From contig SIBZ01000002.1 of the NCBI GenBank assembly GCA_009694955.1, forward strand, positions 1,418 to 65,417: a stretch of DNA of 64,000 bases, read 5' to 3'. Of this stretch, positions 1 through 64,000 are shown one piece after another; position 1 is the first letter of the stretch; each line of letters starts with the position of its first letter. The DNA comes from Candidatus Tayloriibacteriota bacterium. Lineage in GTDB: Bacteria > Patescibacteriota > Minisyncoccia > Phycocordibacterales > UBA10002. The notes beneath the pieces were generated by a model that did not search any database, was not told the DNA's origin, and saw only the letters and a list, made by a program, of their open reading frames with translations. Position numbers and translations under genes: made by a program.

Positions 1-153
1 GAACTTCACGGCGTCGCATCCCGCCTCTTTCGCCACATCGATAAGTTTCTTCGCCATCTCCACGCTCCCATTATGGTTGATGCCGATTTCGCCCACAATA
101 AAGCACGGGTTTCCGTGTCCTACTTTTTTCCCTCCGATTGATGCGCTTCCCAT
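1..153 (-). CDS. Nonulosonate (sialic-acid-type) synthase, NeuB family; N-terminal 51 codons only, gene runs off the left edge
   Basis: Reverse-strand ATG at 153. The hand translation is MGSASIGGKKVGHGNPCFIVGEIGINHNGSVEMAKKLIDVAKEAGCDAVKF. It aligns with the N-terminus of the complete NeuB paralog at 12804-13853 ([37 protein letters not shown]). Confidence 0.8.
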   Translation of the reverse strand, partial: MGSASIGGKKVGHGNPCFIVGEIGINHNGSVEMAKKLIDVAKEAGCDAVKF

Positions 154-196
154 AGTACTATGTTTATGAATAAGACTGTTATAGTATATATAATTA

Positions 197-381
197 AGAA
201 CTCATTTCAAAACCCTATCGCAATCCAAAGATTCGTGGTATTCGAGGAAAAAATGGTGCAGACGAGGGAGGTGTAGCGAGCTACTCCGACTGAGAATAAG
301 CAATTTTTTACCGAATACCGAGAATTGACGATGCGAAATGGCTTCGAAAAGCCTGCCATGGTAGGTTTTGAAATGAGTTCT
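197..381. repeat. Inverted-repeat-bounded element E1 (18-bp perfect arms, 149-nt interior) in the neuB'/gmhA divergent spacer
   Basis: AGAACTCATTTCAAAACC (197-214) is the exact reverse complement of GGTTTTGAAATGAGTTCT (364-381). The interior shares collinear blocks with E2 at 13858-14075. Confidence 0.65.
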
Positions 382-406: not shown

Positions 407-982
407 ATGCACACGGCTGTCGAAACATATCTCACGAATGCCTCTCTTGCCCTGAAAGTAGCGAGTGAGGAAAAAGGGGTTATTACACGGACGGAGGAAG
501 CGATTACGCGTATTGCGCGCTGTTTTCAAGACGGCGGGACGCTCCTCATCGCGGGAAACGGCGGAAGCGCTGCGGACGCGGAGCATTTCGCCACCGAATT
601 TACCGGCCGGTTTATGAAGGAGCGCAAAGCGCGTCCCGCCATCTCACTCGCCTCGTCGACATCTATGCTTACGGCGTGGAGCAACGACCACAATTTCGAA
701 GATGTCTTCGCGAGGCAGATTGAGGCGTTCGGAAAAGCGGGAGACGTGTTTATCGGCATTTCCACCAGCGGAAACTCGAAGAATATCATCCGTGCCGTAT
801 CGAAGGCGAAGACCCTCGGGCTTACCAGCATTACCCTCCTCGGAAACTCCGGTGGAGAATTGCAAGGACTCGCGGACATCACGATTGCGGTACAGGACAC
901 GCGCACGTCCCATATCCAGGAGGTGCAAATTGCGCTGATTCATTGCATCTGCCAGGAAGTGGAGAAAACCTTTACGGAGTAA
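407..982 (+). CDS. gmhA: D-sedoheptulose-7-phosphate isomerase (SIS domain, GmhA type)
   Basis: ATG at 407, 191 aa. Carries the GmhA signature LLIAGNGGSAADAEHFATEF and the second SIS motif GISTSGNSKNI. Confidence 0.85.
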   Translation: MHTAVETYLTNASLALKVASEEKGVITRTEEAITRIARCFQDGGTLLIAGNGGSAADAEHFATEFTGRFMKERKARPAISLASSTSMLTAWSNDHNFEDVFARQIEAFGKAGDVFIGISTSGNSKNIIRAVSKAKTLGLTSITLLGNSGGELQGLADITIAVQDTRTSHIQEVQIALIHCICQEVEKTFTE

Positions 983-3214: not shown

Positions 3215-4219
3215 CTACTTTGCTTTAAATTGATACGGCGTGGTTCCTGTTGCCTTGCTCCCCGCCTCACGACCCCACTTCTGTATCTGTTTCGCGATAT
3301 CCACACCGACATTCTTACTCCACGTGTTAAGGAGTCGCTCGGTAACCTCGCCCATCTTCCCCGCGCCAATCTGCTTCCCATTCAGGCGCGTCACGGGGAG
3401 CAGGCAGAACGGAGTGCCGGTCATAAACGCCTCGTCGGCATTGTAGACATCATACGGCTCGATATTTTTCTCGATAACCGACAACCGCAATTCCTTACCC
3501 AGTTCGAAGATATAGTCACGGCTTATCCCGCGCAGGATATTTCTTCCTTCAGGCGTAATCACGACGCCGTCTTTGACGATGAAGAAGTTGTCTCCGGTTC
3601 CCTCGGCGATAAACCCGTCCGGGTCAAGGAGAAGCGCCCAATTGTCCTTCCCTTCAAATTGGGAAGCTTCGATGTTCGCCATAAGGTAGTGAATCCTGCT
3701 CCGGTTCTTGACCTTCGGTTCAAGAAGCGAGGCGGGTATCGCCCGCTGGGAAGTGATAACCGCGTTAATACCCGTATCAAACAGATGCCCCATCGAAGCA
3801 ACGGTCCATCGGAGCGGAAAGTCCGCGATAATGACATTGGGACCCTTCGGGGTACCGACGGTATCCTGATAGATACCGAGCAATCCCCGTGTGACGTCAA
3901 TCATAATCCGGTGCTCGTCATCTTTTGCCATCGCGGGTTCGTTCGCCTCGATGGTTCTCATAACCTCCCGCTCCATTTCATCAATGGTCATCTCCAAAGG
4001 AATCCGAACATAGTTCAGAGAAGCATACAGACGCCGTAAGTGTTCACGGAGTTTAAACTGTTTCTTGTTGAATGAACGGGTCATCTCAAAGACCATATCC
4101 CCGAACATCAGCGCGGAATCGTAAATCGAAAGCTTCGCCTCCGACTCGGGAATCAGGACCTTGTTCCACGAAACGAGCCGTCCCGACACTTCTTGTTTTT
4201 TCTTGGTTTCTTTTGGCAT
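3215..4219 (-). CDS. Class IV (BCAT / D-amino-acid type) aminotransferase
   Basis: ATG at 4219, 334 aa. Family blocks EGTGDNFFIVKDGVVITP and EAFMTGT are present. Confidence 0.85.
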   Translation of the reverse strand: MPKETKKKQEVSGRLVSWNKVLIPESEAKLSIYDSALMFGDMVFEMTRSFNKKQFKLREHLRRLYASLNYVRIPLEMTIDEMEREVMRTIEANEPAMAKDDEHRIMIDVTRGLLGIYQDTVGTPKGPNVIIADFPLRWTVASMGHLFDTGINAVITSQRAIPASLLEPKVKNRSRIHYLMANIEASQFEGKDNWALLLDPDGFIAEGTGDNFFIVKDGVVITPEGRNILRGISRDYIFELGKELRLSVIEKNIEPYDVYNADEAFMTGTPFCLLPVTRLNGKQIGAGKMGEVTERLLNTWSKNVGVDIAKQIQKWGREAGSKATGTTPYQFKAK

Positions 4220-11655: not shown

Positions 11656-12807
11656 TCAATAGGTTATCACCTTCTGGATATCTGGTAACCGGACGGTTTC
11701 GAGAATATGCACCACTTTCTTGGCGGTTTCTCCCTGGTCATACGGGTTCGTGCCTGCTCGCACGTGTTTCCTGAATGCTTCGTCACAAAGTGCCTTTTCA
11801 ATCGCTTTGCGTATCGCGCCTTGGGTATTGGTCACGTCGAGCACGTTGGCCCCACGTTCCCTTCGCTGTTGACGGCTACCTATGTTGACAGTCGGTAGAT
11901 GAAAGAAAGGTGCTTCGTGTATTCCGGTGCTTGAATTTCCCACGAGCACGTCCGCGACATTGAGCAGTCTCAAGAAATCTTCGTACACGATGTGGGGAAA
12001 CACCCTAAACCCCGAACGTTTGAGGTACGTGATGATACGTCGTCCTCCCGCATCGGTATTGGAATAAATGGCGATAACCGCCGCGCGGTGCTTCTTTGCT
12101 ATGTGTCGTACCGCATCGACGCTTGCCCGAATGTGTTGCGTCACGTTGCCGATTTCCGTGGTGACGGGATGTTGCGAAAAAACGATGACTTTTTGCTCGG
12201 GGTCGAAACCATAGCGTTTCGCAATTTCGGCTTTGGACGGATAGCTAATGCTCCGCATCGTGTCGAGGCTCGGACTTCCGACGAGAAACACGTACCGAGG
12301 GTCTTCTCCAAGCTTAATAATTCTCTCTCTGCTTTGGGGAGTCGCCACAAAATGCACATGAGCGAACTTGGTGGTCGCGTGCCGGAGTATCTCATCTATA
12401 GTCCCGCTCACCTCTCCTCCTTGTATGTGAGCGACGTGGATATTCATATGCATGGCGGCGATGGCCGCGGCCAAATGCGCACCAAGGTCGAAACCGCAAA
12501 AGACAATGTCCGGCCGGAGCCGCTCTATCACATCCGCCATCCCGATAAGCGCGCGACCCATACCTTTCACCATTGAGGCTCCGTCATCACGGTCATGTTC
12601 ACTAAACATCGGAACGGTCGCGTCGATGGAAAAGCCGTCTCCTTCGATGACTTTCTTCGTCTCGCCGAATCCCTTGAGCAAATGCGAACCGGTTACGAGG
12701 AGCTGTACCGTAAGTTTCGGGCTCCGCCTTGCCAGGGTGAGTATCGGTTTAAGCCGACTGTAATCCGCTCGGCGCTCCGTGATAAACAATATTTTTCTTT
12801 TTTTCAT
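11656..12807 (-). CDS. neuC: UDP/GDP-N-acetylglucosamine 2-epimerase (hydrolysing), NeuC/LegG type
   Basis: ATG at 12807, in an ATGA overlap with the neuB stop. N-terminus KILFITERRADYSRLKPIL...VTGSHLLKGFGET, typical of NeuC. Confidence 0.85.
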   Translation of the reverse strand: MKKRKILFITERRADYSRLKPILTLARRSPKLTVQLLVTGSHLLKGFGETKKVIEGDGFSIDATVPMFSEHDRDDGASMVKGMGRALIGMADVIERLRPDIVFCGFDLGAHLAAAIAAMHMNIHVAHIQGGEVSGTIDEILRHATTKFAHVHFVATPQSRERIIKLGEDPRYVFLVGSPSLDTMRSISYPSKAEIAKRYGFDPEQKVIVFSQHPVTTEIGNVTQHIRASVDAVRHIAKKHRAAVIAIYSNTDAGGRRIITYLKRSGFRVFPHIVYEDFLRLLNVADVLVGNSSTGIHEAPFFHLPTVNIGSRQQRRERGANVLDVTNTQGAIRKAIEKALCDEAFRKHVRAGTNPYDQGETAKKVVHILETVRLPDIQKVITY

Positions 12808-13853
12808 CCGAGATGATTCCGTTTAAGATGGGTATCCTTTTTAATGAAGCGTTTTGCCCTGCACTTGAGGACTCGTTCGAATTCCGAAGCGAGTATTTCT
12901 CCCGTACCCGGGCGCTTCACCCAGACATTGTCGTAGCTGAACGATTCTCCTTCTCTGATATCCCGGATGGAAACGACCGTTGCGTACGCGAAATCAATGG
13001 TCGGCTGTTCCTCCTTGAGAATTGTCTTCTTTCCGCCTAGCGCCTTCCAGATGGCGCCGGTTCCTTTGATGAGTTCCTGAAGTTCACCCGGGTCTATAGA
13101 AATGGGCACATCGGGACCGGGCCACTTTTTGTCGGAGGTAAAATGCTTTTCGAATATCGAACCGCGGAGCGCCGTAGCGCCATAACAGGTATAGTTCAAG
13201 AGAGAGTGGTCGCTGAGTCCATACACCGCGTCGGGAAATTCTTTCGAAAGCTCGAGCATGGCATCGAGACGCACCTTTTCGTACGGGGTCGGATAGAGCG
13301 ACGTACAGTGCAGAAGAGCGAACGGGATGTTCGATGCACGGAGGATGCTGACGCTCTTCCGTATTGACGCGATATCATTCATCCCCGTGCTCAAAATGAC
13401 CGGTTTCCCGAATGAAGCAATATGCCTCAGGAGCGGGTAGTTGTTGCACTCACCGGAACCGATTTTGTAGGCTTGAACGCCGAGCTTCTCGAGCCGGTTT
13501 GCCGCCGCGCGCGAAAACGGAGTGGAGAGATAGAGCATACCGAGCTTTTCGACATAGTCCTTCAGCACCTTGTCTTCTTTCTCGGAAAGAGCGCACCTCT
13601 CCATAATATCCCAAATGGATTCCTCTGCGTTCCCGGGGATGACTTTTTTCGCCTCGGGAGTCATCTCATCCTCTATTACATGGCACTGGAATTTGACGCA
13701 TTCCGCTCCGGCTTCATACGCGTCTTTCACCATACGCTTCGCTTTCGCGAGGCTTCCCTCGTGATTAATGCCGATTTCGGGAATAACAAAAGGAGGAAAC
13801 TCCTTTCCTATTTTTCGTGTACCTATTTGTATGTAGGGGGCTTTGTTCGCCAT
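12804..13853 (-). CDS. neuB: Nonulosonate synthase (N-acetylneuraminate/legionaminate synthase family)
   Basis: ATG at 13853 (MANKAPYIQIG...). The track start at 13871 is a TTG. EIGINHEG motif present. The C-terminal SAF/antifreeze-like part reads RDIREGESFSYDNVWVKRPG. Confidence 0.9.
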   Translation of the reverse strand: MANKAPYIQIGTRKIGKEFPPFVIPEIGINHEGSLAKAKRMVKDAYEAGAECVKFQCHVIEDEMTPEAKKVIPGNAEESIWDIMERCALSEKEDKVLKDYVEKLGMLYLSTPFSRAAANRLEKLGVQAYKIGSGECNNYPLLRHIASFGKPVILSTGMNDIASIRKSVSILRASNIPFALLHCTSLYPTPYEKVRLDAMLELSKEFPDAVYGLSDHSLLNYTCYGATALRGSIFEKHFTSDKKWPGPDVPISIDPGELQELIKGTGAIWKALGGKKTILKEEQPTIDFAYATVVSIRDIREGESFSYDNVWVKRPGTGEILASEFERVLKCRAKRFIKKDTHLKRNHLG

Positions 13854-13857
13854 ATCG

Positions 13858-14075
13858 AGAACCCATCTCAAAATAAATGGCTAAGACAAACGTTCAAATT
13901 TCTGCCGAAAAAAGAGAAGCGCGAGGAGGCAGAGCAAGCTCTGTTGACGAGCGATGAGCTTTTTGCAGGCGAAATTTGGACGCTTGGGTAGCCAAGCGAT
14001 TCGTGACACAATCGAATAGAAAAAATGACTTTAATTTTATTCATATAATGAGCGGTTTATTTTGAGATGGGTTCT
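13858..14075. repeat. Inverted-repeat-bounded element E2 (20-bp perfect arms, 178-nt interior) filling the SDR-neuB intercistronic spacer
   Basis: AGAACCCATCTCAAAATAAA (13858-13877) is the exact reverse complement of TTTATTTTGAGATGGGTTCT (14056-14075). Homologous to E1 at 197-381. Confidence 0.7.
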
Positions 14076-14077
14076 TG

Positions 14078-14908
14078 TTATCTCGCCGTCCAACCACCAT
14101 CCACCGTGAGCGACGCGCCGGTCATATAGGAAGACGCCTCCGACGCGAGAAACAGCACGGCTCCGTTGTAGTCGGTGTTCTGTGCCATCCGCCCAAGTAT
14201 GGTGCGCTTCTCATACGCGTTCACGAACTCCGCACCTTGGCCGGCTTCCACTCCGCCGAGGACGAGTGTATTCACCCGGATACCCGTCTTCTCAAATCCG
14301 CAGTACTCGGCAAGCCACTTCGTAAACCCGAGCATACCCGACTTTGCAACGCTGTACCCAACCGGCTTGTAGTATATATCCCCGTTCTTTCGCTTGAAGT
14401 CGTACATCGCCTGTTCGGGAGAAACGACTCCATACACGGAAGAAATGTTGATGATGGAGCCATTCTGTTTCTTCGCGTTCCGGTAAGCGCGTATAAACTC
14501 CTGCGATACGAAGAGCGCGGACGTAAGATGTGAGGCATTCATTTCCCTCCACACATCCTCCGGATAGTCTTCAAACAAACCGCTCTCTTCCTTCGGCGCA
14601 TTCGGGTGAGTTGCGCGTCCCGCATTATTGATGAGCACGGTAGGAGCATCCTTGAAGGTGTTCTTGATTTCTGCAAACGCCCGGACAACCTCGCTCTTCT
14701 TCGTGAGGTCGACAGCGACACAGAGCACTTGAGCGCCGTCATTTTGCAATTGCTGTATCTTCGGGTGTACTTCTTTTTTGACATCCAAGACTGCGACAAA
14801 CGCCCCCGCTTCCACGAGGATCTTCACGTATTCACTGCCAAGGTCGCCCTGACCTCCGGTCACGACGGCAATTGTACCCTTTAGAGAAAACAGTTCTTTG
14901 TTGGTCAT
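14078..14908 (-). CDS. Short-chain dehydrogenase/reductase (SDR)
   Basis: ATG at 14908, 276 aa. VVTGGQGDLGS, NNAG and YSVAK motifs present. Paralog of 1641-2399. Confidence 0.85.
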   Translation of the reverse strand: MTNKELFSLKGTIAVVTGGQGDLGSEYVKILVEAGAFVAVLDVKKEVHPKIQQLQNDGAQVLCVAVDLTKKSEVVRAFAEIKNTFKDAPTVLINNAGRATHPNAPKEESGLFEDYPEDVWREMNASHLTSALFVSQEFIRAYRNAKKQNGSIINISSVYGVVSPEQAMYDFKRKNGDIYYKPVGYSVAKSGMLGFTKWLAEYCGFEKTGIRVNTLVLGGVEAGQGAEFVNAYEKRTILGRMAQNTDYNGAVLFLASEASSYMTGASLTVDGGWTAR

Positions 14909-62721: not shown

Positions 62722-62806
62722 AGAAACAAATTTTCAATTATCAATTATCAAAGAATCTTTAAGTATGAGATTCAAAGAAATTAAGAATTAAAAAATTGAT
62801 TGAAAA

Positions 62807-62829
62807 TTGATAATTGAGACTTGATAATT
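62807..62829. repeat. 23-nt AT-rich repeat, copy B (TTGATAATTGAGACTTGATAATT)
   Basis: One mismatch to copy A at 43386-43408. It overlaps the stop codon (62828-62830) of the upstream gene. The spacer also has TATCAATTATCAA at 62739-62751. Confidence 0.55.
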
Positions 62830-63782: not shown

Positions 63783-63832
63783 CTTAAACCGCCGACAGGA
63801 TGGCTATGTTAGGCCTTGTCTTCTTTTTTGTG

Positions 63833-63864
63833 TAGCACTAGTGGGCACGTGTCCACTAGTGCTA
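63833..63864. repeat. 32-bp near-perfect palindrome (candidate operator)
   Basis: TAGCACTAGTGG-GCACGTGT-CCACTAGTGCTA has perfect 12-bp arms and a CACGTG centre; only one central pair is non-complementary. It lies 88-119 nt upstream of the ATG at 63745 and just upstream of the candidate promoter. Confidence 0.6.
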
Positions 63865-64000
63865 AACTGGTGAGCAGGAAAATAGATAACGCTGTAGCTA
63901 TTTTCTCACTACCAACGCCTCCCACACTTCAATCTGTTTTTGTATGTGCTCTTCCTTTGTCGGAAGTCCCTTAAATGCTTTAAAGGCGGCTTCGCCGAGC

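Follow-up and report, generated by a model that had tools for sequence, protein, structure and literature searches.

Several kinds of small repeat in bacteria bear comparison with the sequences described here. Duplication of a TA in CTAG-like targets is the hallmark of the prokaryotic superfamily IS630/Tc1-mariner, and the RUP elements of Streptococcus pneumoniae, like other IS630-derived MITEs (miniature, non-autonomous mobile elements), combine a TA target with terminal repeats. RUP termini match those of the autonomous IS630-Spn1, and no structural or functional signature has been reported for the RUP interior. In the RAYT-mobilized REPINs and in the bcr1-type repeats of the Bacillus cereus group, the stem is kept by compensatory changes, which points to selection on a single-stranded form. 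Bacterial MITEs are non-coding and generally under about 200 bp (at most about 200-300 bp), with terminal inverted repeats, a terminal TA, a target-site duplication and a stem between the 5′ and 3′ ends (PMC2229807). The Correia elements (CREE/NEMIS) of Neisseria are small and non-coding, have terminal inverted repeats as well as a TA at each end, and are dispersed, often beside or between genes; when co-transcribed, they form hairpins that are cut by RNase III, and they can supply parts of promoters (PMC2229807). Riboswitches and other cis-regulatory leaders represented in Rfam are, on the other hand, covarying structured non-coding regions immediately upstream of biosynthetic genes, and this is also how one of the sequences considered here presents itself.

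The window, a stretch of 64,000 nt from a Candidatus Tayloriibacteriota bacterium, contains two such sequences, copy A and copy B, which very probably belong to one family of miniature, non-coding, non-autonomous mobile elements with a TA target. The family is apparently undescribed. Copy A occupies 13858..14075 on the + strand (core GAAC...GTTC, 13859-14074, 216 bp), its orientation having been set from the interior by a covariance model (R1; 48 bits on the + strand against 37 bits on the − strand). Its left terminal inverted repeat, AGAACCCATCTCAAAATAAA (13858..13877, 20 bp), and its right one, TTTATTTTGAGATGGGTTCT (14056..14075), are exact reverse complements, and the perfect 20-bp inverted repeat that the first-pass annotation had described as filling the spacer between an SDR gene and neuB can thus be read directly from the sequence. 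Between the arms, the folds place a long inner hairpin at 13892..13981 (GTTCAAATTTCTGCC...GGCGAAATTTGGAC, with GCAGAGCAAGCTCTGT at the apex), the counterpart of the covarying central helices of the family, followed by a local hairpin, GCTTGG-GTAG-CCAAGC (13982..13997), that includes the family motif GTAGCCAAGC and is seen in both fold and alignments. The flanking dinucleotides, GA (13857-13858) and TT (14075-14076), are degenerate relative to the canonical TA/TA. In a copy-free allele, whether empty or excised, the sequences joined would be ...GAGATAACA and CGATATGG.

Copy B occupies 197..381, also on the + strand (core 198-380, 183 bp; 47 bits on + with the R1 model), and its arms, AGAACTCATTTCAAAACC (197..214) and GGTTTTGAAATGAGTTCT (364..381), are perfectly complementary over 18 bp. 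Its left flank is AA and its right flank TA, and copies from other Taylorbacteria MAGs match it at 88-91% identity. Positions 6, 10, 17 and 18 distinguish the arms of A from those of B, and every one of these differences is indeed mirrored in the partner arm. These are the only two copies visible in the window, and they are among only five inverted repeats of at least 16 nt in the 64 kb. The arm consensus occurs four times in the window, whereas shuffles predict 0.12 occurrences, and none of 100 shuffles reached four. Folding, which had been proposed as a check, gave stabilities for both copies and both strands far beyond those of shuffled sequences (z −6.2 to −9.7).

Both copies lie next to genes for surface glycan synthesis. 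The SDR gene (14078..14908, − strand; Pfam adh_short_C2), whose product is 100% identical to a protein of a Candidatus Taylorbacteria MAG, ends in a TAA (minus strand, 14078-14080) 2 nt from one arm of copy A, and the ATG of the NeuB-family gene that lies 3′ of copy A on the operon strand (12804..13853, −; PF03102, E = 9e-72) is at 13853, 4 nt beyond the other arm. The second NeuB-family gene is represented by its 5′ end only (1..153, −, ATG at 153), cut by the window edge; in a longer contig from the same organism this open reading frame is the start of a 288-aa PF03102 gene. As first annotated, copy B is upstream of this paralog and in the same relative orientation as copy A is to neuB. However, it is not within an operon: it lies 43 nt, not 4, from the ATG, in a 253-nt divergent intergenic region between the NeuB paralog (−) and a SIS-domain gene (407..982, +). 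Pfam domains in the window include NeuB, SDR, cytidylyltransferase and UDP-GlcNAc 2-epimerase, and a Pfam search of 19 window ORFs returned glycan-biosynthesis genes only and no transposase.

Is this, then, a leader for nonulosonate synthesis? Two structured elements upstream of two NeuB-family genes, in the same relative orientation, with a strong fold and with pairing maintained by compensatory changes, are what would be expected of a riboswitch-like RNA on the minus-strand operon mRNA that senses or controls NeuB synthesis, one of the roles first proposed. The wider distribution, however, points elsewhere. A paired-arm scan found 111 further complete copies in 72 MAG assemblies, from Patescibacteria, Desulfobacterota, Bdellovibrionota, Myxococcota, Planctomycetota, Chloroflexota and other phyla (the hosts are all MAGs, in which binning errors could inflate the taxonomic breadth). 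No NeuB neighbor is present at 110 of these 111 loci, and in the remaining one the element is located at the stop codon of neuB, that is, at the 3′ end of the gene rather than upstream of it. The adjacent genes are unrelated among loci, no recurrent neighbor protein emerged when 2449 ORFs of the 111 loci were clustered all against all, and the elements are oriented at random to the gene beside them (17 sense versus 21 antisense). The CTP_transf-SDR-NeuB-Epimerase_2 operon is present without the element in three relatives (L116, L117 and L120), with unrelated SDR-NeuB spacers in L116 and L117. There was no match in Rfam at either gathering or lax thresholds, in agreement with the earlier impression that this is no known RNA family: the window gave no hits at gathering, six loci gave none at E up to 1, and the element alone yielded only noise against Rfam 15 (no more than 17 bits, where the gathering scores are 37-87). 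As a family-wide function, a NeuB leader is refuted by this distribution, and neither copy is a dedicated sensor of nonulosonate synthesis; that a leader of this kind is the right explanation of the sequence on the operon mRNA is hardly tenable.

The features that distinguish the family from riboswitches and other leaders, namely the lack of a fixed gene or orientation, mobility and absence from orthologous operons, are those of a mobile element. Together with the two window copies, the set comprises 113 copies and 226 boundaries. In its canonical form, the element runs from a TA through GAACYCATYTCAAAA, a rod-forming interior and TTTTGARATGRGTTC to a second TA. A 15-bp arm is common to 113/113 copies, an apparent invariance that arises partly by construction, as 12 bases of each arm were set by the search pattern. 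Copies are 169-225 bp long, with occasional forms of 80 bp and 123 bp. The flanking bases, which were outside the search pattern, are TA on the left in 78/113 copies, on the right in 86/113 and on both sides in 67/113. Farther out there is C or T at −3 (170/226), A at −4 (100/226) and T at −6 (102/226); the target is thus AT-rich and roughly palindromic, of the form T.AYTA to the left and TARGT.A-like to the right; left flanks read CTA or TTA, and right flanks TAG or TAA. Single MAGs carry the element at up to seven loci, and copies at unrelated loci in the same genome are 97-100% identical in one MAG each of Bdellovibrionota and Kaiserbacteria. Targeting of tRNA genes was considered, but no tRNA was found at the locus (L077) where it was looked for.

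Empty sites were sought by protein search and contig look-ups. The one precise case comes from a comparison of two orthologous loci, L033 and L129, in which a single TA in L129 corresponds to the element flanked by TA on both sides in L033. With the element and one TA subtracted, the conserved flanking blocks of L033 are 34 nt apart, as they are in L129, which makes for a net gain of the element plus 2 nt (TA). By this one precise comparison, insertion at a TA in an AT-rich, palindrome-like target adds the length of the element and a TA. For copy A itself, a metagenome scan with the SDR protein yielded one distant relative only. At the point where the window has copy A, L120 has the stop of SDR right beside the start of NeuB (...GGTTGGACGGCGAGATAAC followed directly by ATG), although at only 67% protein identity the exact copy A junction is not reconstructable from this relative. 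Copy A would have been inserted where, in a relative, the stop codon of SDR and the start codon of neuB are a single nucleotide apart. Within the window's own strain, short-read assemblies break at the element, which the MITE reading explains: other contigs end at copy A, one same-strain contig keeps copy B, judged by the 253-nt length of the intergenic region, and no contig lacking copy A or copy B was found in that strain.

The TA flanks, the empty sites and the several near-identical copies per genome speak against a leader and for a MITE, which was also among the roles first suggested; many copies at unrelated loci with target-site duplications, the combination that the first-pass annotation had named as telling against a leader, are what the scan and the flanks show. 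The family has the MITE features listed in PMC2229807, being small, with terminal inverted repeats, a TA duplication and dispersed recent copies, and it has the target trait of IS630-type elements, a TA that is duplicated within a palindromic site of CTAG-like or AT-rich sequence. Movement would be by cut-and-paste in trans, by an IS630/Tc1-mariner-type DDE transposase recognizing the 15-17-bp terminal repeats. It is the TA signature, and only that, which suggests this superfamily. Since TA is self-complementary, a TA duplication, a repeat that includes the A/T and enters between T and A, and the target-plus-end motif of a single-strand transposase look alike in sequence.

If so, where is the autonomous partner? 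Neither the 8-kb loci nor the viral contigs nor the 19 scanned ORFs of the window yielded an element in which these termini frame a transposase gene, and the ORFs between arms include no transposase. Extra or solo arms within the loci were chance matches or shortened copies. The paired-arm scan found no copies in the viral contigs, and the single-arm scan of the same contigs gave 60 hits, mostly chance occurrences in coding sequence, plus one 123-bp copy. In this respect, the family differs from RUP with its IS630-Spn1, even though the TA target and the terminal repeats are alike and suggest IS630-family trans-mobilization here too. The terminal sequences occur in none of 8 million papers searched in full text, and a literature search on MITEs of the candidate phyla radiation brought up nothing of relevance.

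That no DDE partner was found is compatible with another kind of mobility, in which the element moves as single-stranded DNA by means of an HUH (Y1) transposase, in the manner of REPIN/RAYT or IS200/IS605, the TA being a cleavage or target motif. A hairpin with compensatory changes is shared with REPINs and bcr1-type repeats, where it reflects selection for intramolecular pairing, and a strand asymmetry of wobble pairs in one subfamily, described below, would be compatible with a single active DNA strand. Nonetheless, symmetrical terminal repeats of 15-20 bp with TA on both sides are unlike IS200/IS605 ends, the two-base net gain at the empty site fits a duplication, which paired REP hairpins lack, no RAYT or other Y1 gene recurs near the copies, and the family is cross-phylum whereas REP systems are lineage-specific. 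HUH-mediated movement is therefore decidedly improbable. Some other likenesses were rejected: a retron msr/msd is suggested by the UAGCGAG motif that comes after the terminal helix, yet a reverse transcriptase is missing, and the element is multi-copy and TA-flanked; integron attC sites have RYYYAAC/GTTRRRY ends, unlike those of the element; IS91 has a GAAC/GTTC target on one side only and no terminal inverted repeats; and the loop sequences are off consensus for kink-turns and sarcin-ricin loops.

The interior of the putative MITE is unusual. All representatives fold as rods. In a MAFFT alignment of 13 copies of one subfamily, 95.5% of the cells are paired and 30/62 pairs have double changes, a level reached by 0/500 shuffles, and the first reading that pairing rather than sequence is conserved holds well beyond the two window copies. 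The covariation score is 0.398, compared to 0.152 for shuffles (0/500 reach 0.398) and at most 0.085 for slid controls. The interiors covary as helices, not as codons. Matched changes between the terminal repeats would also be expected from co-evolution with a transposase. Compensatory changes that keep a long imperfect hairpin, however, suggest that a single-stranded form, RNA or ssDNA, matters. Purine-rich, non-complementary internal loops (GAGCGAR / GCAGCC, with recurrent CGAG) are kept across phyla.

Such an interior might be a structured RNA gene that has become mobile, the rod being a protein-binding non-coding RNA and the terminal helix and TA flanks reflecting its spread. Besides the strong covariation, a core common across phyla is found on one strand (40-119 bits with the model, versus about 25-30 on the other strand), the oriented strand folds better in 96/113 copies, and the interior is not AT-rich. 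In the Kaiser-type subfamily, moreover, the alignment favors the + strand, with about 46 G-U cells to 6 A-C cells, which for copy A is the strand antisense to neuB and hence a further point against a neuB leader. Overall, however, the G-U asymmetry is weak (4.1 versus 3.5 G-U pairs per copy in minimum-free-energy folds) and is reversed in some subfamilies, a crude half-split palindrome alignment leans slightly to the other strand, and the purine-rich loops can account for much of the difference in folding energy. No conserved promoter or terminator was seen, and the orientation of the element to its neighbors is, again, random. Whole subfamilies, including those of the Desulfobacterales, have the common termini with unrelated interiors, and the 80-bp forms are without the core. 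An RNA gene as the basis of the family is thus improbable, and a TA-target MITE accounts for it better.

A further reading is that the family is no mere deletion derivative of an IS. The internal loops exceed what trans-mobilization requires, which leaves room for a function at the level of RNA or ssDNA, and the lack of an autonomous partner, the one-strand cross-phylum core and the wobble-pair bias of the subfamily allow a reading in which the family is a structure-dependent, pan-phylum mobile element with the covarying rod and its purine-rich loops as the functional unit. This reading is unlikely; in it, the rod would serve either as a single-stranded (RNA or ssDNA) substrate for an unrecognized mobilization machinery or as a protein-binding non-coding RNA gene that parks at stop codons.

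The family is often found at stop codons. As the element starts with G and ends with C, the flanking TA and the first base of the element together restore a TAG stop, whichever strand is read. At 45/226 boundaries, this TAG terminates an ORF of at least 80 codons, and 38/164 boundary TAGs (23%) end ORFs of at least 100 codons, compared to 5.9% of all TAGs in the same loci. Many copies coincide precisely with a gene's stop codon or with those of a convergent gene pair. Ends that rebuild stop codons let the element sit between tightly packed or overlapping genes.

Of the systems described, the Correia elements have small size, terminal repeats, TA flanks and dispersal in common with the family, although their terminal sequence is unrelated, and they are confined to one genus while the family is found in at least 72 MAGs from many phyla. 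The long covarying rod, the conserved internal loops and the frequent docking at stop codons further set the family apart from Correia elements, and a structured interior sets it apart from RUP. What would the two copies do where they are? By analogy with Correia elements, copy A would likely lead to RNase III cleavage, another of the roles first suggested, or to altered stability of the operon mRNA, on which its spacer is predicted to fold, at about −72 kcal/mol, into a hairpin with a perfect closing helix of 20 bp, and the region immediately 5′ of the neuB AUG would likely be occluded. Translational coupling of SDR and neuB would also have been replaced by a 224-nt spacer. Copy B, in the divergent promoter region, may have donated an outward −35 hexamer: a promoter-like hybrid site (183..210, −, 10/12 consensus matches) that points to the NeuB paralog combines TTGAAA (210-205), inside the left arm, with a −10 TATACT (188-183) in the flank, paralleling the promoter parts supplied by Correia elements.

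For this organism, the splitting of the SDR-neuB pair by copy A may change expression of the surface-glycan pathway, and the tempting but wrong annotation of a "neuB riboswitch" is removed from the window. For the discovery of non-coding RNAs, the case is a caution, since textbook covariation is found here in a sequence that is no regulator of its neighbor. The family occurs in the genome-reduced Patescibacteria, but also in Desulfobacterota, Bdellovibrionota, Myxococcota and others, and so widely distributed a repeat can serve to trace horizontal exchange among uncultured lineages.

The spacer between the SDR gene and neuB is filled by a perfect 20-bp inverted repeat (copy A, arms at 13858-13877 and 14056-14075), just as the first-pass annotation had described it. 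The outer arm stops 2 nt short of the SDR stop codon (minus strand, 14078-14080), and 4 nt separate the inner arm from the neuB ATG (13853). The homologous element at 197-381 (copy B) has perfect 18-bp arms (197-214 and 364-381), and the arm differences noted between the copies, at positions 6, 10, 17 and 18, are indeed each mirrored in the partner arm. These inverted repeats are not attributable to chance. The arm consensus has four matches in the window versus 0.12 expected, and copies A and B are two of just five inverted repeats of at least 16 nt within 64 kb. Both fold far better than shuffled sequence on both strands (z -6.2 to -9.7), at -72.3 kcal/mol (minus) and -94.4 (plus) for copy A and -61.1 (minus) and -71.6 (plus) for copy B, and they are the sole matches in the window to a covariance model of one subfamily. 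Copy A is a sequence singleton, with at most 64% identity to any other copy; copy B is 88-91% identical to copies of other Taylorbacteria. The low-GC end of the window (62-64 kb, GC 0.484) also holds two features unrelated to the element, an AT-rich 32-nt inverted repeat (AATTTTCAATTATCAATTATC..., 62729-62822) and a 19+19-nt palindrome (GTGTAGCACTAGTGGGCAC/GTGTCCACTAGTGCTAAAC, 63830-63867).

A paired-arm scan of one genome per prokaryotic species, with 12 specified bases per arm and arms 143-203 nt apart, returned 111 loci in 72 assemblies, all 72 of them MAGs; the search pattern itself partly imposes arm invariance, and more divergent relatives would escape it. Many hosts are Patescibacteria (Taylor-, Kaiser-, Sacchari-, Pacei-, Kerfeld-, Brenner- and Harrisonbacteria), and further hosts include Desulfobacterales and Thermodesulfobacteriota, Bdellovibrionota, Myxococcota, Planctomycetota, Eisenbacteria, Chloroflexota, Gammaproteobacteria, Campylobacterota and Bacteroidota. 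The sole, putatively archaeal match, in a bin labelled Bathyarchaeota (L027, 4408-4625), lacks TA flanks (AA and AT) and has a unique interior. Short forms also occur, of 80 bp in two Saccharibacteria loci (L035, 6674-6753; L008, 3045-3124) and of 123 bp in an IMG/VR viral contig (L178, 4765-4885), the single copy found among 2.9 million viral contigs. Flanks were read for L035 and L178, and both are TA-flanked.

This distribution bears directly on the role first preferred for the element, a leader or riboswitch-like RNA for nonulosonate synthesis. The copies are scattered over the 111 loci, and a NeuB homologue adjoins the element at one locus only (L037), where it occupies the stop codon of neuB. 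A role as neuB leader is rejected. Clustering of all ORFs from the 111 loci revealed no protein family recurring beside the element, and no Rfam family matches it; the annotation had not recognized a known RNA family in it either.

Why, then, do both window copies have NeuB genes nearby? The simplest account is probably that the window, part of a Candidatus Taylorbacteria MAG, forms a single long surface-glycan locus, a type of variable region in which such insertions would be tolerated. Pfam identifies NeuB, SDR, CMP-type cytidylyltransferase and UDP-GlcNAc 2-epimerase in the gene context. The window gene set includes two NeuB, one CMP-type cytidylyltransferase, two GDP-mannose 4,6-dehydratases, GT1, GT2 and GT4 glycosyltransferases, a C-methyltransferase, a GHMP kinase and a UDP-glucose dehydrogenase, and the whole stretch (1-64000) resembles a single surface-glycan biosynthesis supercluster. 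Copy B does lie upstream of a NeuB paralog, 43 nt from its start (the truncated ORF 1-153 is a NeuB-family gene on a longer contig of the same organism). It is not operon-internal: it occupies the intergenic region between this paralog and a divergently oriented SIS gene.

The bases flanking the element show great regularity. The flanks were outside the search pattern, and TA precedes the terminal GAAC in 78 of the 113 copies (111 loci plus the window pair) and follows GTTC in 86, with TA on both sides in 67. The next base outward is C/T on the left and G/A on the right, with further preferences giving T.AYTA|, and where a flank is not TA, the change is mostly a single transition at one end (TA/TG eight times, CA/TA seven times). 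Flanks of the window copies are degenerate (GA/TT for A, AA/TA for B), which suggests that these are not recent insertions. At one locus (L077, 3816-3830), the right flank, ATGGGTTCGAATCA, looks like the terminus of the element's own arm and also like a tRNA T-arm; a search with ARAGORN gave no tRNA at this place.

Within single genomes (Bdellovibrionota JBILFA01 and Kaiserbacteria MFLB01), copies at unrelated loci share 97-100% identity, and short-read assemblies of the window's own strain break off at the element from either side, the usual fate of a repeat. An empty site is available for a Kaiserbacteria copy (L033, 7210-7398), at which two convergent genes each end on a boundary TAG of the element. 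Its orthologue L129 (81% protein identity) has a single TA at the insertion point, and the 34 nt between its conserved blocks match the L033 distance after subtraction of the element and one copy of TA, so that insertion added, on balance, the element and two further bases. For copy A, three relatives (L116, L117 and L120) have the same operon of CTP_transf, SDR, NeuB and Epimerase_2. In L120, a distant relative that provides the empty site, the SDR stop and NeuB start are one base apart (GGTTGGACGGCGAGATAAC|ATGAAG), and the window at the same junction reads GGTTGGACGGCGAGATAACA[AGAAC...GTTCT]CGATATGGCG. In L116 and L117 the SDR-NeuB spacers, of 109 and 98 nt, are unrelated sequence. That of L116, a 77%-identical relative (3335-3443), consists of four short perfect hairpins (CTCCCTTTATAAAGGGAG, CCTCATTCTTATGAGG, GGAGGGATTTAAATCCTCC and CCTCCTTTAAAAAGGAGG) and may represent another repeat family.

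Bacterial MITEs are described as small, non-coding and dispersed, with terminal inverted repeats, 5' and 3' ends that pair into a stem, and a terminal TA with duplication (PMC2229807), and the element matches each of these published features. The MITE-like option raised by the annotation is thus supported by the extra copies at unrelated loci, the TA flanks and the empty site with TA gain, and the element is probably mobile, non-autonomous and TA-targeting. IS630/Tc1-mariner transposases have as their signature the duplication of TA in a CTAG-like palindromic target, with a precedent in RUP and IS630-Spn1 (PMC2229807), and on this ground the element may be mobilized in trans by such an enzyme. 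There is perhaps an even chance that an IS630-type transposase is the driver. One negative result weakens this proposal: no autonomous element with matching termini was found in the 8-kb loci, the viral contigs or the 19 window ORFs scanned, and these ORFs include no transposase.

The interiors fall into 37 BLAST clusters, and every cluster representative folds into a long rod. In a MAFFT alignment of 13 Kaiserbacteria-type copies, made with no fitting to any structure, RNAalifold found 62 pairs with 95.5% of cells paired; 30 pairs (105 cells) had changes on both sides, and the central helix shows up to five pair types per position. The covariation score, 0.398, compares with 0.152 in shuffles (0 of 500 reached the observed value) and at most 0.085 in slid controls. 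That pairing is conserved was thus a correct observation, and a general one. The arms themselves come in two types, CC/GG and TT/AA at positions 5 and 9, nearly always matched between arms, which base-pairing and co-evolution with a DNA-binding transposase both predict.

With the covariance model, class I copies reach 40-119 bits on one strand, against about 25-30 on the opposite one; both window copies belong here, as do most of those from Patescibacteria, Bdellovibrionota, Eisenbacteria and Thermodesulfobacteriota. The remaining copies, among them the two Desulfobacterales subfamilies, stay near 24 bits on either strand and have the termini alone in common. Class I members share purine-rich internal loops on one strand, with the blocks ...ttcGAG(C)GA(A/G)a..., ...gAGG-hairpin-CGAGG... 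and ...GCAGCCGAA..., and CGAG is repeated three to six times. These common loops exceed what trans-mobilization needs, and it is mainly for this reason that an RNA gene or an ssDNA element is also conceivable. The strand oriented like the window plus strand folds better in 96 of 113 copies, a difference that purine-rich loops alone can partly explain; for copy A, this strand is antisense to the neuB operon. G-U versus A-C cells number about 46 to 6 in the Kaiser-type alignment and 57 to 22 in the first 22 terminal positions of class I. G-U pairs per copy in minimum-free-energy folds are 4.1 versus 3.5, reversed in some subfamilies, and a crude arm-against-arm alignment leans to the other strand. 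In one Desulfobacterales subfamily (L002, L005, L013, L024, L057, L086 and others), the position of an internal module of about 60 nt varies: some copies have it on the left, others on the right and apparently inverted. The interiors therefore seem to be built of rearrangeable hairpin modules.

The element starts with G and ends with C, and a flanking TA thus completes a TAG on either strand. At 45 of 226 boundaries, this TAG is the exact end of an ORF of at least 80 codons, and every other ORF-end distance from 0 to 57 nt was seen at most six times. Of 164 boundary TAGs, 38 close an ORF of 100 codons or more, versus 5.9% of all TAG trinucleotides in the same loci, and element orientation relative to the docked gene is random (17 versus 21). 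This docking may reflect target preference, since YTAR has a stop codon on both strands, favoring gene ends; alternatively, it is possible that only stop-codon insertions survive in gene-dense genomes. L087, L084 and L106 resemble L033 in having two convergent genes that both close on the boundary TAGs. Orthologues that lack the element (L125-L130) have these two genes with overlapping 3' ends, and the element has therefore been tolerated between overlapping genes. The terminal sequences occur in no paper found by full-text literature search, and the family is apparently new. Its breadth, covarying rod and docking on stop codons make it unusual.

Locally, insertion of copy A would have driven apart a stop and a start codon that in a relative have 1 nt between them, leaving a 224-nt spacer between SDR and neuB. 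On the operon mRNA, this spacer would fold as a rod of about -72 kcal/mol, and the 20-bp perfect helix closing it would reach to 4 nt from the neuB AUG. RNase III cleavage, or altered mRNA stability and translation initiation, is plausible here by analogy with Correia elements (PMC2229807). There is no promoter- or terminator-like site inside the element. Each terminal repeat carries an outward TTGA(G/A)A (e.g., window 205-210, minus strand, and 14062-14067, plus strand) that has five of the six bases of the -35 consensus, and insertions could therefore make hybrid promoters with a -10 in the flank. At copy B, an outward TTGAAA in the arm lies 16 nt from a TATACT in the flank, facing the NeuB paralog, and by this consensus match a hybrid promoter seems possible.
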